In this document: in pieces, positions 47,733-54,687 of the stretch | Layout of the letters: every line of letters starts with the position of its first letter | Numbering within the stretch: the first letter of the stretch is position 1 | Virus record (IMG/VR): IMGVR_UViG_2751185632_000005 | Location: 1-64,000 of that record | Strand: one strand, 5' to 3' | Source of the DNA: a virus | Lineage: Duplodnaviria; Caudoviricetes | DNA length: 64,000 nucleotides | Translations under genes and position numbers: made by a program | The notes under the pieces: generated by a model | Told to the model about the DNA's origin: nothing | What the model saw: only the letters and a program-made list of their open reading frames with translations | The model's database searches: none

Positions 47733-47760
47733 AAAGGCCGGGCTGTGTTGCCCGGCCTTT
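47733..47760 (-). terminator. Intrinsic terminator inside accessory operon
   Basis: Perfect 11-bp IR followed by TTCTTTT on minus strand. Confidence 0.75.
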
Positions 47761-48639: not shown

Positions 48640-49827
48640 TCACGCTGCGATGCTGATCGGCTCTCCGAATGGCACCTTGGCGGCAAGCTGGTCGAAGGAT
48701 CGGGCATCGCCGTAGACGCCCCACAGAACAGGCATCGGCGGCTCGCGCCCGAAGTCGTAGACCTCCAGGTCGGTGAGGTAGATGCAGGCGCGGGCGTCGG
48801 GATAGTCCCGTTCGATTCTACGGAATGTGTCGGAAAACGCGGTGCCGCCGCCGCCGGCCGGATGGAGCACCAGTTCGTCGCCGGTCTCGAACTCCTCGAC
48901 GCGCTGAACCGCCGCATCGGCGTAGATGACGGTGATCCTGTCCACCGCTCCCTCGCAGAAGGCGCCGTTGATCTCGGCGGCGAAGGCGCGGAGGATCTCG
49001 TCGTTGATGGACCCGGAGGTGTCCACCGCGATCACGATGTGCGAGACGCCATCGGAGATAGTGCCGGGAGTGATGAGCCCGTGCGGGATCAGGCGCCGGT
49101 TCGGCCTGGACCATGCGAAGTCGCGCGTGGTGGACTCGTCGACGAAACGGCGGAGCACCGACCGCCAGTCCACCTTCGGCTTCAGAAGCTCGTCCACGAG
49201 GCGCTGGATGCCCGCCGGCAGGCTTCCGGCATTGGCGGCCTTGGCGATGTTCGCCGCCTGCCTAACGGCCGTCTGCATCTCAGCACGGGCCTCGGCGAGG
49301 GCGGCTTCGTCATGCGCCGGCGCCGCATCGAGAACGGCGCCACACCCACCTGGGTCCTGTCCGCCTTGTGCGCCGTTCACGCCGCCATCGGCATCTTCCT
49401 GAAGAAGGCGATAGATTTCTTCCGCCGAGAGCCCGGTGTAGGCCGGATCGATCAGGGCGCCCTTTGGCATAGCAATGGCGACCTTCGTGGTCTTGGAGTT
49501 TGCCCGAATATACGCATCGAGCTCGCCGTTGATGGCATAATCGCAGGCCATGTTCCAGCGCCGCTGATCGCGTGTCTGCCTGCGGATGTGGTGCTCGAGG
49601 GCGTTGTGCATGACCTCGTGGGCCAGCACGAACACCAGTTCCGGCTTCTTCAACCCGTCGACGAACTTTCGGTCGAAGAACAGATTGCGACCATCGGTCG
49701 CCATAGTGTCGATGCGCGAGTCATTTGTGGCCTCTGAGAGCCTCAGGCGGGTGGTTAGTGCCCCGAAGAACGGGTGGTTCCACATAAGCTCGGTCATGGA
49801 CCAGAGAATCTTGTCCTCGGCGATCAT
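48640..49827 (-). CDS. DUF2201-type metallopeptidase-like plus VWA domain protein
   Basis: TMATDG, HEVMH (HExxH), WNMACDYAIN, VDTSGS MIDAS. Confidence 0.88.
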   Translation of the reverse strand: MIAEDKILWSMTELMWNHPFFGALTTRLRLSEATNDSRIDTMATDGRNLFFDRKFVDGLKKPELVFVLAHEVMHNALEHHIRRQTRDQRRWNMACDYAINGELDAYIRANSKTTKVAIAMPKGALIDPAYTGLSAEEIYRLLQEDADGGVNGAQGGQDPGGCGAVLDAAPAHDEAALAEARAEMQTAVRQAANIAKAANAGSLPAGIQRLVDELLKPKVDWRSVLRRFVDESTTRDFAWSRPNRRLIPHGLITPGTISDGVSHIVIAVDTSGSINDEILRAFAAEINGAFCEGAVDRITVIYADAAVQRVEEFETGDELVLHPAGGGGTAFSDTFRRIERDYPDARACIYLTDLEVYDFGREPPMPVLWGVYGDARSFDQLAAKVPFGEPISIAA

Positions 49828-50192
49828 GATGTAGCTCCCTTCATGGAGATTCGAGCGCAGAGCGCGATGTCTTCGGGCGGTAGACGGGAGCGGAGCACGT
49901 TGGTAACCGTGCCGCTGAAGACCTTGGCGTTCGCGCCCCTGATGAACATGTCCTTGTCGACGAGAGGGCCGGCACTCTTCCAATGGGTGGTCCCGCTTTT
50001 ATCGACAACGCGCATTGACTGCGGTTGCGACCGGAATACGGAGAATGACCGGTCTTCCGCTCGGTAGATCAGCGTCCAGTGGGCAGTTTCATAGTTGGCG
50101 AGAATGCCAATGAATCCCCAGCGGATGCCGATATCTCCCGCCGTCACGATCTCTCGGCCGAATGGCCCCATCACTTTTCGGAAGTCAGCCAT
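49824..50192 (-). CDS. Paralogue 5 of uncharacterised tandem family
   Basis: WTLIYRAEDRSF and VTNVLRSRLPPEDIALC. Confidence 0.75.
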   Translation of the reverse strand: MADFRKVMGPFGREIVTAGDIGIRWGFIGILANYETAHWTLIYRAEDRSFSVFRSQPQSMRVVDKSGTTHWKSAGPLVDKDMFIRGANAKVFSGTVTNVLRSRLPPEDIALCARISMKGATS

Positions 50193-50529
50193 GAGCCTTC
50201 CTCCTGCCATTCATCGAAAGCCGGGTGCATCGTGCCAGATCCTCCGGCTTGAGGCGGGCCTTCAGGATGTCGGTGACGAAGCCCTCTTCGATCTCGCCCT
50301 TAGCGACAGAGGGGATTGAGAACAGATCTCTCCCCATTAACTTCCGTGCCCGTTCGGCTGCGACGGCGGACATGATGCGGCGGCATTTGAACCGGCGCGT
50401 ATCGGCGAAATAGATGAGCTTCCACTCGCAGAGTTCGCCGTCTTCCTTCATGCCGGAAAACCACCAGGTGACCCGGCCGAATGCTTCCTCGGTCTTTCTT
50501 GGACCCCAGACGCTCTTGATCCTCGGCAT
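50185..50529 (-). CDS. Paralogue 4 of uncharacterised tandem family
   Basis: WKLIYFADTRRF and VTDILKARLKPEDLARC. Confidence 0.75.
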   Translation of the reverse strand: MPRIKSVWGPRKTEEAFGRVTWWFSGMKEDGELCEWKLIYFADTRRFKCRRIMSAVAAERARKLMGRDLFSIPSVAKGEIEEGFVTDILKARLKPEDLARCTRLSMNGRRKAHG

Positions 50530-50532
50530 GGT

Positions 50533-50838
50533 TCACTCCGAAAGCGCGGCTGCCAAGCAGGCCGCGAGGTCGGCCGGCGGCAGAAGGCTGCGGAGATGAT
50601 CACGGAGGCTTCCGTCCGGTATGTCGATTGGGCGGTGACCGAGAGCCAGCATCATCTTCGGGTTCACCGCGAAGAAATCCCCGGCCTTTCGCAGGCTGAA
50701 CTTGCGATTGGAGTGGGTGAATTCGAGAGTCCATCGCAGGACAGAGCCGCTCTCGTAGGTGACCATGAATTCGAAGGTGGTCACGTTCCAGTCAGTGTGC
50801 CGGCTGAGCGGCCCCTCGATGCAGAGTGGTTTGGTCAT
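50533..50838 (-). CDS. Paralogue 3 of uncharacterised tandem family
   Basis: WTLEFTHSNRKF and LRDHLRSLLPPADLAAC. Confidence 0.75.
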   Translation of the reverse strand: MTKPLCIEGPLSRHTDWNVTTFEFMVTYESGSVLRWTLEFTHSNRKFSLRKAGDFFAVNPKMMLALGHRPIDIPDGSLRDHLRSLLPPADLAACLAAALSE

Positions 50839-51152
50839 AATCGCCGATCTCCGTACAGCGACATGGCGGCGCACTCAGCCATTTCCTTGGGGGTGAGCAA
50901 GGATTTCAGGTGGTCCACGAGTGGCACCGTGATGGTGAACTGCGTTCGTCCCAACCTCTTCAGATGGGCCAGACGCTTAAGGTCTTTCGGCCAATGTCGC
51001 TCTTTTCGGGTGCTGAACTCGCGTAACTCAGGGTTATACTGGAGTAAGTACGTAGCGAAGTCGCCATTGATGAACGTCACGACAAAGGTGAAGTTTGCGA
51101 TATACCATCCCGAAACGCAGCCGCGTCGCTCGATATCGATGACTTGTCTCAT
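50835..51152 (-). CDS. Paralogue 2 of uncharacterised tandem family
   Basis: YLLQYNPELREF and LVDHLKSLLTPKEMAEC. Confidence 0.75.
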   Translation of the reverse strand: MRQVIDIERRGCVSGWYIANFTFVVTFINGDFATYLLQYNPELREFSTRKERHWPKDLKRLAHLKRLGRTQFTITVPLVDHLKSLLTPKEMAECAAMSLYGDRRL

Positions 51153-51154
51153 GC

Positions 51155-51502
51155 TTAGATCTTTCTTGCAGTGAGTGAGGCGCCAGCAACCGTCGCAAGA
51201 TCGCGATCTGTAAGCATCCCGCGTAGGGCATTCACGATCTTCCCTTTCGGCAAGGCGGAACGGAGGACGGCGATTGGCCGAAACAGGGAGGCAAGCCGGT
51301 CGGCATGCGCCTGCTCCCACCCGTTGCGCGCCGGCGCGATGACGCGGAAGGCTCTGGTCGGCGTCTCGAAGACGAGCGTGTAGCGCCGGATGCGGCCGAG
51401 ATCGTCTCCGGCAATAAACGTCCATTGGAAGGCTACGCCGCCCTCGATGAGCGTCTTCCGGTAGCCGGTTGGGCCGGCAACCCAGACGATGGCGCCGCTC
51501 AT
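51155..51502 (-). CDS. Paralogue 1 of uncharacterised tandem family
   Basis: YTLVFETPTRAF and IVNALRGMLTDRDLATV. Confidence 0.75.
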   Translation of the reverse strand: MSGAIVWVAGPTGYRKTLIEGGVAFQWTFIAGDDLGRIRRYTLVFETPTRAFRVIAPARNGWEQAHADRLASLFRPIAVLRSALPKGKIVNALRGMLTDRDLATVAGASLTARKI

Positions 51503-52485
51503 CCGAACACGACGTCCTGGTTCCGGACGGTCCAGTCTATAAAGGCCTGCGTGTGCGAGAGCTTGCCGTCACGCCGGACAGCGTCCGTCATGAACAGGAT
51601 CTCGAACTCGCGCGGCAGGCGCTGCATGTAGATCATGGCGTTGCCGATGGTCTTGTCGGTCACCTTGCGGGCGAGGCCCGAGCTGATGGCGAAGCGCGCC
51701 GACGAGTCCTCGGGCACCTTGGCGCCGGTGGGATTGCTAAGCACCAGGTCGAGCGAAGGCAGCCCCTGGTAGACGCGGATGAAGCCCTCGAGTTCGGCGG
51801 CCGCGCCTTCGCCCACGATGCCGGCAATAAGCGCCAGCCGGAGCGGAGACGGCTGTTGGACCACCTTGCCGACCTGCTCCCACGCCCTCGGCGTAGGGAA
51901 GGCGCGGAGATGATCACCGTTCATGTCGTGCAGGAGGGCAGGGCGCCAGCGCAGGAAGGCGACGATGATCGGATCGACGCCGATCCTGTTGAAGTGGTGG
52001 ACGGTGGTGTCGACGTCCGGGTCGACGTCGATGTGCGCGAACCGATTGGCAAGCGCCGACGGCATGCGTTGCGCGGCGGCGCGGTCGGACTGGCGGTTGC
52101 CGGCGGCCACGACGCGCCAGCCCGGCGGAAGCTGGTAGTCGCCGACGCGGCGATCGAGCACCAGGCCGAACATGGCGGCCTGCATCGAGGGCGCGGCGGC
52201 GTTGATCTCGTCGAGGAACAGGATGCCTTCGGCGCCGTCGCGGCCGGGCTGTGGAAACTCGTCGGGAACCTTCCACTTGGTGGTGTCTGCGGTGAGATCG
52301 GGCAGGCCCATGAGGGCCACCGGATCACGGGTGGATGCGCGGAAGTCGACGAGGCCCCAGCTCCGCTCGTTGACGATGTCACGAACGATGGAAGACTTGC
52401 CGACGCCGGGCTGGCCCCACATCATGACGGGAATATCGGCGTCGAGGAAGGCGTAGAGGGCCTGCGCTGCGGTCTGCAGATTCAT
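51499..52485 (-). CDS. MoxR/CbbQ-like AAA+ ATPase
   Basis: GQPGVGKS, FLDEI, AAGNR, LANRF. Confidence 0.9.
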   Translation of the reverse strand: MNLQTAAQALYAFLDADIPVMMWGQPGVGKSSIVRDIVNERSWGLVDFRASTRDPVALMGLPDLTADTTKWKVPDEFPQPGRDGAEGILFLDEINAAAPSMQAAMFGLVLDRRVGDYQLPPGWRVVAAGNRQSDRAAAQRMPSALANRFAHIDVDPDVDTTVHHFNRIGVDPIIVAFLRWRPALLHDMNGDHLRAFPTPRAWEQVGKVVQQPSPLRLALIAGIVGEGAAAELEGFIRVYQGLPSLDLVLSNPTGAKVPEDSSARFAISSGLARKVTDKTIGNAMIYMQRLPREFEILFMTDAVRRDGKLSHTQAFIDWTVRNQDVVFG

Positions 52486-52631
52486 GGTTGGTCTCCTGGT
52501 GTCGCATGATCGCGGGTTGAGGAAGAGGGGTGGAGTGGGGTAATCTGAAACTGGGCGCGACTATTGCATGCGCTCATGTCCCCGGCCGCCAAAATTAGGC
52601 GAAGAAGTCGGAGAATATAGGACAGCGTACA

Positions 52632-52853
52632 TTGATGACATACTGGCTTGATCTGATGAGAATATCGTCCAAAGAAAACACAGGCGCCTTCGTCGTTTAT
52701 TCCTACCCTATAGAGGCAGAGAGCGACGGCGAGGCCAAGGTTTTGGCTTCTGAGAAAAGCCTGATCCCGTTTTTCGATGACTACGATTACGCGGTGCTCA
52801 TCTTGGGAAGCGGAGAGGTCGTAGCGACCTTCGGGGAGATGGCCGGCCTCTGA
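52632..52853 (+). CDS. Counter-oriented low-GC moron, acidic hypothetical protein
   Basis: AT-richer island within the minus-strand operon. Confidence 0.5.
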   Translation: MMTYWLDLMRISSKENTGAFVVYSYPIEAESDGEAKVLASEKSLIPFFDDYDYAVLILGSGEVVATFGEMAGL

Positions 52854-52899
52854 CCACTCCAAAAGAGATGAAAGGTGGCGCCCGCAGATGGGCGCCATC

Positions 52900-53310
52900 T
52901 CATTTCCACACGATGGTATCGGGAAACAGCACGGCGGGGCCGCAGATAGCCGGTGCCGATTCAAGGATTTCCCGCCTGGTGCATCTGAAGTCCGGCATCA
53001 GAATTTCGCCGGGCATCCAAGAGACATGATGGTATTGGGAATGCACAAAGTTGGCCTGGTAGATGTCTGTCGCCCTGACGTTCCGGATGTGCCGCCCGTT
53101 GATGGCTGAGGTCTCGCCGACGAACATGTCTCGGCGGTGACCATCGTACAGAACAGACACATGCTCGAACGGCTCATCGAAGAACTGAGTGATCGCCTGC
53201 GAGATGGAGTTGAACGCCACGCCGAGCAACGGGGCGTAGAAGGGCTGTATCTCCCCGATGACGGGGATGAGGAGGAACGTTGCCACGGTGGTTCGGGCCG
53301 GCGTTGCCAC
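52900..53310 (-). CDS. Hypothetical protein
   Basis: AAGGAGG RBS before GTG 53310. Confidence 0.6.
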   Translation of the reverse strand: MATPARTTVATFLLIPVIGEIQPFYAPLLGVAFNSISQAITQFFDEPFEHVSVLYDGHRRDMFVGETSAINGRHIRNVRATDIYQANFVHSQYHHVSWMPGEILMPDFRCTRREILESAPAICGPAVLFPDTIVWK

Positions 53311-53323
53311 CGGCCCGCCTCCT

Positions 53324-54229
53324 TCACGCAAGGAAATCGCCGATTTGGTCGAGGATGGCCTGCGCCTCGTTGGCAACGTCGCGGCGCTTGCCCTCGTCCT
53401 CGCGAAGGACGCTGGCGTCGTGCTCGCAAAGCACCTTCATCCGCTCCGCCAGTTCGGCGATGCGCGGGTCTCCGGTAATGTCGAGCGCCGGAAGAACGGC
53501 GAGCATGTCGCGCACGTTCTCGACCAGCGAGTCGCGGAAGATGCCTTCCGACCGCTCGCCCTTCTTGCTCGCCGGCTTGTAGGCGCCGAGCCGGTCGACC
53601 ATCCGCTCTGCCAGTTCGGCGATGCGCTCGAAGATGTTGCGCACGGCAGCACGCGTCGCCTCGCCGACCTGCTGCTCAATGTCGGCGCGGATGCGCTCGG
53701 CCTGAGCGTCAGAGATGGCGACACGGAAGTCGTCGGAGGTCGGGACCGGGAGAACCTTGCAATCCATCGCGAACTTGGCGCGCAGCTCTTCCGCCTCGGG
53801 ATAGTCAGCCGCCTTGAACATGCCGTTGAGGCGGGAGGCGGCAGCGGCCACATAGCCGGGGTACCTGGTGATGAAGGAGTCGACGGCCGCGTCGAACTTG
53901 GCCGACTGGGATCGGAGCCAAGCCATGTGTGAGAGATAGGCGTCGGCAGCCATGATGCGACTACCGTCCTGCATCCACGGCAGCGTCCGCTTAAGGAATT
54001 CATTGCGGGTTTCGCTGACGATGCGCTCGATCTCCTCGAGCGCTTCCTTCGGCAGAAGCAGCTTGTTGTAGCGGCCGGCGTCCGAGGCGGCGCCGTGTTG
54101 GTCGTTCACCTCCTTGGTGACTTCGCGGTCGAGCCGCCGGCCGGACCACTGCGAGATGCGCAGCGAGACGATCATCGCGCGGGTGGCGAGGGTAGAGGAG
54201 GCAGACTGGATCTGAGAAAAGGCGTTCAT
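53324..54229 (-). CDS. DUF3150-like protein
   Basis: VSLRISQWSG..LD, YNKLLLP, LPW; family usually linked to AAA+VWA pairs. Confidence 0.65.
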   Translation of the reverse strand: MNAFSQIQSASSTLATRAMIVSLRISQWSGRRLDREVTKEVNDQHGAASDAGRYNKLLLPKEALEEIERIVSETRNEFLKRTLPWMQDGSRIMAADAYLSHMAWLRSQSAKFDAAVDSFITRYPGYVAAAASRLNGMFKAADYPEAEELRAKFAMDCKVLPVPTSDDFRVAISDAQAERIRADIEQQVGEATRAAVRNIFERIAELAERMVDRLGAYKPASKKGERSEGIFRDSLVENVRDMLAVLPALDITGDPRIAELAERMKVLCEHDASVLREDEGKRRDVANEAQAILDQIGDFLA

Positions 54230-54300: not shown

Positions 54301-54687
54301 TCAAGCGGCGGCCGTCTCGGCCAATTGCGCGGCCAACCCGAGAACTTTGGAGCGTACGGCGGGATCGAGGCACCGAAACGCCGACAGCAGCTCGACCTCC
54401 TGCCGGTTCTGCGCGGTGACGACCGATGCGTTGCTGGCGCCCGCCGGAGAACTACCGAGTTCAGCGCCGTCGTAAAGCTCGACCACCGATACGCCCAAGG
54501 CCTGGGCGATCTGAACCATGCGCGAGCCGCCGACGCGATTGGTGCCCTTCTCGTATTTCTGAATCTGCTGGAAGGTGATGCCGACGGCCTCGCCAAGTGC
54601 CTCCTGGGACATTCCCTGGAGCTGGCGGGTGCGACGGATGTTCTGCCCGATGGTGATGTCGGCCTGAGCCGGGGACTTCATGTTCAT
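54301..54687 (-). CDS. XRE-family HTH regulator
   Basis: IGQNIRR..SQEALGEAVGITFQQIQKYEKGTNR. Confidence 0.88.
   Translation of the reverse strand: MNMKSPAQADITIGQNIRRTRQLQGMSQEALGEAVGITFQQIQKYEKGTNRVGGSRMVQIAQALGVSVVELYDGAELGSSPAGASNASVVTAQNRQEVELLSAFRCLDPAVRSKVLGLAAQLAETAAA

Follow-up and report, generated by a model that had tools for sequence, protein, structure and literature searches.

Small, cassette-exchangeable genes between the AAA+ ATPase and zincin-VWA genes of an alphaproteobacterial prophage

The window analysed here, a stretch of 64,000 nucleotides, covers the first 64 kb of the IMG/VR provirus IMGVR_UViG_2751185632_000005, which is 89 kb long. It belongs to an alphaproteobacterial prophage, and the provirus DNA sits on contig LUYP01000036.1 of NCBI assembly GCA_001602765.1. 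On the minus strand, the gene of an AAA+ ATPase is followed by five small open reading frames (ORFs), here called P1 to P5, and then by the gene of a zincin metallopeptidase fused to a VWA domain. The original prediction, made from the letters of the window, described the five ORFs as diverged paralogues and as a candidate array of adaptors for the two flanking proteins. We confirmed five minus-strand ORFs of 101-122 aa at this place. Sequence comparisons indicate that their family is a previously undescribed accessory component, exchanged as cassettes, of AAA+/zincin-VWA modules of the N4 gp24/gp25 type. The seven genes are as follows (pI, isoelectric point; HMM, hidden Markov model).

51499-52485, minus strand: AAA+ ATPase, MoxR-like or N4 gp24 type, 328 aa (phrog_1297, Pfam AAA_5)
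51155-51502, minus strand: P1, subtype A, 115 aa, pI 11.3 (family HMM 82.8 bits)
50835-51152, minus strand: P2, 105 aa, without the N-terminal GP, sister lineage of P3 (42.1 bits)
50533-50838, minus strand: P3, 101 aa (56.9 bits)
50185-50529, minus strand: P4, subtype D, 114 aa, pI 10.1 (108.6 bits)
49824-50192, minus strand: P5, subtype E, 122 aa, pI 10.0 (101.0 bits; modelled with AlphaFold2)
48640-49827, minus strand: zincin metallopeptidase-VWA fusion, N4 gp25 type, 395 aa (Pfam DUF2201_N and DUF2201, phrog_1314)

All six junctions from the ATPase stop to the VWA start were coupled, each being an overlap or a gap of 2-3 nt. The start of P1 overlapped the ATPase stop as ATGA, as read from the DNA, and ATGA overlaps also joined P2 to P3 and P5 to the VWA start. 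P1 and P2 were separated by 2 nt, P3 and P4 by 3 nt, and P4 and P5 overlapped by 8 nt (ATGGCTGA). The motifs that had been picked out by eye were found again. All five copies had the C-terminal helix motif and the pattern [WY]-x-L-x-[FY]-x4-R-x-F, and four had the N-terminal GP, P2 being the exception; no repeat was seen within the array at the DNA level. The paralogy was supported by an independent HMM built from 98 family representatives, each less than 40% identical to any window copy. This HMM gave the five copies the scores listed above (42-109 bits), and the top score of 10,000 shuffled copies was 9.7 bits. The profile matches were near full-length, running from HMM positions 1-2 to 109-114 (19 to 113 in P2). 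When aligned end to end with P1, the other copies were 23-26% identical.

Positional orthologues of all five genes were found in a Pleomorphomonas prophage (locus L006, the same as L016) and in two metagenomic relatives (L008 and L009). Between the window and the Pleomorphomonas prophage, the ATPase was 94.8% identical in amino acids, with a rate of nonsynonymous substitution (dN) of 0.028, and the VWA protein was 88% identical (dN 0.073). The corresponding values for P1-P5 were 60-73% and 0.20-0.37, so that the small genes evolve 3-13 times faster than their neighbours. The ratio of dN to the synonymous rate (dN/dS) was 0.16-0.43 over the orthologue pairs of P1-P5, with dS saturated for P2 against L006; where dS was unsaturated, the comparison with L006 gave 0.19-0.33. 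These ratios indicate purifying selection on P1-P5. Because positional orthologues exist and dN/dS is low, the five ORFs are genuine genes. They are old paralogues rather than recent duplicates. The raised dS in P1-P5 suggests that the alleles are older or were exchanged.

Searched with the family profile, 1.8 billion representative proteins yielded 124 matches, about 115 of them full-length, with lengths of 89-154 aa; the family amounts to about 110 clusters. Metagenomes supply most of the members, and the database names are "hypothetical protein". Some long proteins with repeated partial matches (P0096, P0103 and others) were HYR_4C repeat adhesins and were rejected as chance matches inflated by the repeats. 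No Pfam, PHROG, NCBIfam or PADLOC model matched the array family. In the 50,697 isolated-phage records searched by tblastn there was no match to it, and the window's own 89-kb provirus held P1-P5 only. Since 400 further species genomes of the same order gave one weak partial match, the family is rare.

The members were tightly linked to the interval between the AAA+ gene and the DUF2201 VWA gene, which we call the slot. In all seven non-self context look-ups, the members lay between an AAA+ gene of about 328 aa and a DUF2201 gene, and this included the most distant matches (E about 1e-4). They were still in the slot in L030 and L031, though the upstream genes there differ (a PIF1/UvrD-type helicase, a single-stranded DNA-binding protein and no 300-aa gene). 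In five whole host genomes (two of Brucella, formerly Ochrobactrum, and one each of Roseibium, Hoeflea and Aurantimonas), 16 of the 16 matches fell at a single module locus. Homologues occurring independently of the ATPase pair, which would have spoken against the original prediction, were thus not seen in these contexts, and every member examined was in or beside an AAA+/DUF2201-VWA module. Gene context and junctions together showed the family to be confined to, co-oriented with and, to judge from the overlaps, translationally coupled with the ATPase-VWA module.

The original prediction also suggested that copy number at the slot would vary among phages. After 14 further loci had been gathered by way of an ATPase alignment, the family profile was run over every locus, and the number of copies ranged from 0 to 5. 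Five copies were present in the window, L006 and L008, and 4-5 in L013. L014 (the same as L026) and L018 had four. At least three were counted in L012, where the contig ends, and three in L023, L024 and L031. The count was 2-3 in L032 (two profile matches, three called genes) and in L029 (the third being a partial match), and two in L019, L025 and L028. Among the loci without a copy, the ATPase and VWA genes were adjacent in L020 and L027, and p301, a 301-aa gene described below, lay between them in L021 and L022. In L017 they were separated by a 1-kb gap with no family match. As far as gene content can tell, the empty modules show the family to be dispensable for the core module. Within this clade the slot held family members only, plus one unassigned 155-aa ORF in L013, and no recognisable unrelated cargo. 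The interval in L017 (7978-9012) also lacked a convincing ORF, and may represent the remnant of an array or else some unrecognised element. A separate comparison, of L030 (6282-7450) with L031 (6282-7442), showed that GCA_004017145.1 has its DUF2201 gene split (203 + 182 aa) and one array member frameshifted. A metagenomic contig near-identical to this module has both the DUF2201 gene and the array member intact, and the module of GCA_004017145.1 looks like a decaying copy.

In the tree of the family, the window copies grouped with subtype relatives at other loci and not among themselves. Subtype A always came first after the ATPase, and P1 fell together with the genes in first position at L006, L018 and L023. 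P4 belonged to subtype D, in a clade with members from L024, L029, L012, L025 and L031, and P5 to subtype E; a further subtype, F, was absent from the window. P2 and P3 formed a lineage-specific sister pair with 85% tree support, and P2 had an orthologue in L006. The clearest exchange was seen in two Brucella (formerly Ochrobactrum) prophages, L023 and L024. Their DNA is 96% identical over the ATPase gene and again over the VWA gene and all slot genes from the second one on. In first position, however, the slot holds an A-type gene in one prophage and a D-type gene in the other, without DNA similarity (L023 7943-8358 versus L024 7943-8341), and the swapped segment takes in the last 19 or so codons of the ATPase. 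In addition, a 380-bp insertion upstream of the ATPase in L024 (6599-6978) carries an extra, very divergent family member. Single copies are therefore replaced as cassettes between near-identical prophages.

The structure of the family was modelled on P5 with AlphaFold2, using the alignment of 124 sequences. The model scored 87.4 in the predicted local distance difference test (pLDDT). It is a single domain in which six β-strands form an antiparallel sheet that packs on two C-terminal helices, with one loop predicted less confidently. The five copies form one family with one predicted fold, as expected from the original prediction. None of the fold-library matches was strong enough to assign the P5 model to a known fold. 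With this model, the best match in the PDB by Foldseek was monellin at E 0.5 and the best in BFVD had E 0.05, and the ESM Atlas gave nothing usable. Among 48,161 chains compared by VIA-align, SpoVG (Z 4.9), Pur-alpha (Z 4.0-4.3) and propeller blades (Z about 4) were below the meaningful level. A search of the PDB with the family sequence profile gave no match. The proteins are basic, with a median pI of 10.0 and a pI above 8.5 in 95% of members.

Column conservation changed the meaning of the shared motifs. They had been taken as a constant docking motif, but they consisted mostly of hydrophobic residues, alternating along strands 2-4 and lying on one face of the C-terminal helices, which form the core of the predicted fold. 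The only conserved non-core positions were the GP turn (G9-P10), R48, R/K101 and D108, and these look like candidate surface or functional residues. The variable part of the family spans residues 56-93. The idea of a constant scaffold with a variable surface held for subtypes D and E, whose middle regions were 15-19% identical as against 36-38% for the core. It failed for subtype A, including P1. Among divergent members of this subtype the middle (42% identity) was more conserved than the core (35%), and it carried W-[ED]-x2-H ... Y-R-P-x-A-V-L-R-x2-L-P-K-G. Subtype A looks like a constant partner.

Some unusual relatives were noted alongside. Three short and highly diverged members (L023 8740-9033, L024 8723-9016 and L013 6072-6401) were missed by the profile at E <= 0.01. 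Each is the last or next-to-last gene ahead of the VWA gene, and they have in common a C-terminal tail, D-D-I-P-F, that could be a docking peptide. A search for longer fused forms found none, which is weak evidence by the tool's own caveat. One 198-aa relative lies directly downstream of the VWA gene in L013 (7945-8541, plus strand). Its N-terminus has three to four tandem repeats of 20 residues (unit approximately LTGCTSLTALPDGLTVGGSL) that resemble leucine-rich repeats by eye and are followed by a short family domain, and a Pfam scan of the protein gave no match. In its predicted product, this fusion shows that the family domain is able to carry an added module.

The two flanking proteins were readily recognised. 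The ATPase matched phrog_1297 at E 1.6e-86 and Pfam AAA_5 with 30.8 bits (cut-off 22), and it scored 18.5 bits with AAA_3 (cut-off 27); GenBank phage records label its homologues "MoxR-like". The Walker A motif GxxGxGKS and the Walker B DE were invariant among relatives. By tblastn, the ATPase was found in 845 of the 50,697 phage records, N4 gp24 among them, and the VWA protein in 546. The VWA gene lay downstream of the AAA gene and was co-oriented with it in all related loci that extended far enough. Its product matched DUF2201_N (E 5e-45, 154.6 bits, cut-off 23.2), DUF2201 (E 5.5e-22, 78.6 bits, cut-off 26.4) and phrog_1314 (E 1e-94). The HExxH predicted for the DUF2201 protein was present. 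Its residues H70, E71 and H74, and residues D269, S271, S273, T329 and D353 of the metal-ion-dependent adhesion site (MIDAS), were invariant in 13 homologues. Because the Walker A and B, HExxH and MIDAS residues are all invariant, the ATPase-zincin-VWA machine is probably active. Of the PADLOC models, RtcR/PspF-type ones matched the ATPase at sub-significant level (E 9e-4 and 1e-2), and none matched the VWA protein, p301, p136 or P1-P5. Plasmid relatives amounted to short ATPase matches of about 71%. The C-terminal tail of the ATPase tended to read F-[VI]-[DN]-W before A-type genes and F-T-[NS]-W before D-type genes, with one exception; with too few loci, and co-adaptation inseparable from recombination linkage, this hint was not used as evidence.

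The genes around the module serve phage DNA metabolism and encode RecT, a primase, an SbcC-like protein, several methyltransferases and two helicases, one DnaB-like and the other Dda-like. The minus strand carries, in this order, a helix-turn-helix (HTH) regulator, p301, p136, a 415-bp gap, the AAA+ ATPase, P1-P5 and the DUF2201_N/DUF2201 protein. The remaining features are as follows.

54301-54687, minus strand: HTH regulator, the first gene in this order
53324-54229, minus strand: p301, a 301-aa helical protein, third core gene of the module, conserved in related loci
52900-53310, minus strand: p136, a small protein of 136 aa, not of the array family, found in related loci by phmmer
52876-52897, minus strand: terminator-like hairpin directly 3' of p136 (consensus scan only)
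52614-52641, minus strand: weak sigma-70-like promoter match (9 of 12 positions, consensus scan) upstream of the ATPase gene, inside the 415-bp gap
47733-47760, minus strand: strong terminator-like hairpin with an 11-bp stem, 8 GC pairs and a T tract

The last hairpin, two genes past the VWA gene, is likely the end of the transcription unit. The gap between p136 and the ATPase gene (52486-52899, 415 bp) has a terminator-like hairpin and a promoter-like match on either strand. An ORF of 73 aa on the opposite strand within it (52632-52853) is called as a gene in the public annotation.

Of the 20 related loci scanned, 18 had p301 next to the AAA gene. It was not seen in L027, a contig of 4.4 kb that reaches only 382 b beyond the AAA gene on its upstream side. 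L031, where none of the genes called has a product of 300 aa, was left out of the scan with p301 as the query. The original prediction had labelled this protein DUF3150, a name that found no HMM support in Pfam, NCBIfam or PHROG. Its 349-aa ORF matched none of 24,736 Pfam-A models at E <= 0.1, and the protein had no PHROG or NCBIfam match. The AlphaFold2 model (pLDDT 81.8) consisted mainly of long helices, and a fold search returned generic helical bundles only. p136 had phmmer matches in 12 of the 20 loci and no match in Pfam or NCBIfam. Its core is strongly conserved (E-H-V-x-V-L-Y ... R-D-M-F-V-G-E ... N-G-x-H-I-R-N-V-R-A-T). It was also considered as a hidden member of the array family and ruled out, with an hhalign probability of 0.1% against the family profile.

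The nearest known arrangement is that of N4 gp24 and gp25, which also occur in Schitoviridae and other phages. The flanking genes are homologous to this pair (PHROG 1297 and PHROG 1314), with the same order and orientation. In N4, however, no gene lies between the two, where we found the small-protein array, and the pair described here differs further in having a conserved 301-aa partner gene and in belonging to a temperate alphaproteobacterial phage. In the literature searched we found no tested function for the N4 pair. In jumbo phages, a MoxR AAA+ protein with a metallopeptidase-vWA protein has been described as a "chaperone-cochaperone" pair and proposed to serve virion assembly with proteolytic processing (Iyer et al. 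2021, PMC7824862), and that article cites a MoxR-vWA tail-assembly system of ATV. The architecture, a MoxR-like ATPase with a vWA protein bearing an N-terminal zincin, is the same as here. That proposal concerns virion assembly; in contrast, the module described here has early, replication and methylase genes around it.

A related logic is known from cellular MoxR-vWA ternary conflict systems of the VMAP and iSTAND types, which have a diversifying third component (Kaur, Burroughs, Iyer, Aravind 2020, PMC7159879). The likeness lies in the logic of a conserved MoxR and vWA core combined with this diversifying component; small multi-copy co-effectors (DUF397) and subsystems of a zincin plus small precursors also appear there. 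The VMAP and iSTAND systems are cellular, with a large multidomain third component and effector domains fused to vWA. Here, in contrast, the third component is an array of single-domain proteins of about 110 aa and the vWA partner has a zincin only. These differences in architecture set the module apart, and we do not claim that it belongs to the VMAP/iSTAND systems. In the available parts of PMC7824862 and PMC7159879 there was no mention of a small-protein array. The likeness to F-box and SOCS-box receptors drawn in the original prediction is limited to the abstract logic of one machine with many exchangeable small partners. Such receptors have a docking motif separate from the substrate-binding domain, whereas the array proteins have one small domain whose conserved residues are mainly core. 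Fold searches by Foldseek and VIA-align showed no relation between the two, nor was there any in sequence.

A functional tie of the small proteins to the AAA-VWA module, either as partners or as clients, is probable. We favour the reading that they are exchangeable specificity partners, that is, adaptors or cofactors, of the ATPase-VWA machine, with a probability of roughly 0.4. It was ranked first because the family is confined to the module, is coupled to both core genes and varies as a specificity layer would. Under this reading, the small proteins would be made in step with the machine and would associate with it through the conserved scaffold together with the GP turn, R48, R/K101 and D108. 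The subtype-specific middle regions would then set what the ATPase-VWA-peptidase acts on, with subtype A as the more constant partner beside the ATPase and subtypes D and E as the more variable ones. Since some related modules hold no copy, the small proteins may modulate the machine rather than be essential to it. The original adaptor interpretation kept its linkage and interchangeability, but its constant docking motif is mostly fold core, its variable surface fits only part of the family and its DUF3150 label found no support. A stronger form of it is distinctly unlikely in our view. There, the module would be a programmable phage remodeller or protease, and each cassette would dock and deliver a different host protein (defence, nucleoid) for unfolding or cleavage. 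The naming of host defence proteins as targets is pure inference.

Several observations weigh against specificity partners. The modules of L020, L027 and N4 itself have no copy at all. Some members lie beyond the slot: they precede the AAA gene directly in L024 and L025 and precede p301 in L019, and they follow directly on the VWA gene in L013, L028, L029 and L032. Unrelated genes occupy the AAA-VWA interval in distant phages, namely RNase H in phiFa and MazG with six small ORFs in CRP-7. The carriers are all related Hyphomicrobiales prophages, so the exclusive linkage could be partly due to common descent. The conserved columns are mainly hydrophobic core and offer no clear docking surface, the basic pI is also compatible with nucleic-acid binding, and with dN/dS below 1 over whole genes there is no hint of an arms race.

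Some of these points would fit accessory genes with a role of their own (in anti-defence or nucleic-acid binding, for example) that use a permissive, well-expressed slot, their linkage to the AAA and VWA genes being historical. The foreign genes in the interval elsewhere, the core pair without the family, the members outside the slot and the relatedness of the carriers could all be understood in this way. So could the basic charge and the fast evolution with cassette exchange, which is typical of accessory genes. The best fold matches, though weak, were to the nucleic-acid binders SpoVG and Pur-alpha, but they did not reach a meaningful level. The family was also module-only even where the AAA protein was just 52-71% identical to that of the window, and again in L030 and L031 with their different neighbourhood. 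Moreover, no identifiable unrelated gene occupied the slot within the clade, and the start/stop overlaps with both core genes were conserved. On balance, we consider independent genes unlikely, although they are the least improbable of the alternatives to specificity partners.

The small proteins might instead be clients of the machine. They would then be effectors or cargo, either processed by the zincin peptidase or folded, activated and loaded by the AAA+/VWA chaperone, with the scaffold or the termini as the recognition element. Basic proteins bound for the virion or for DNA would be an example, by analogy with the internal proteins of T4, which are small, basic, cassette-variable and protease-processed. 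A metallopeptidase with an intact HExxH does adjoin the array, the family is basic, and copy number and subtype vary as those of a payload might. Diverged small genes in tandem next to a processing zincin are known from peptide-processing systems (PMC7159879), and the virion-assembly role with processing proposed for phage MoxR and peptidase-vWA pairs (PMC7824862) points the same way. However, the small proteins are predicted to fold into compact domains (pLDDT 87), and neither a leader/core division nor a conserved cleavage motif is obvious in them. Moreover, the neighbours of the module are early, replication and methylase genes rather than structural ones. Clients are thus doubtful, and we place them after the independent genes. 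A last alternative is that the five proteins are obligate subunits of a fixed hetero-oligomer that caps or regulates the AAA+ hexamer, and are not interchangeable. It would agree with the unchanged set and order of the five genes in the Pleomorphomonas prophage and two metagenomic relatives, with purifying selection on each copy and with the age of the paralogues. Related modules, though, hold 0, 2, 3 or 4 copies in varied subtype combinations, and a subtype was swapped between near-identical prophages, which makes a fixed assembly very improbable.

The array lies between genes of the gp24/gp25 type and so offers a handle on them, as what the small proteins bind or become should reveal the substrate of the machine. 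If they are specificity factors, they would provide a case from bacterial viruses of one ATP-driven protease or remodeller retargeted by exchangeable receptors, as well as a small protein scaffold that is new and has a region of natural variation. Even as clients or unrelated accessory genes, they form an unnamed, structurally unassigned family with clear cassette dynamics. Were the programmable remodeller to be true, prophages would retune their host range or counter-defence by cassette swaps such as that between the Brucella prophages.

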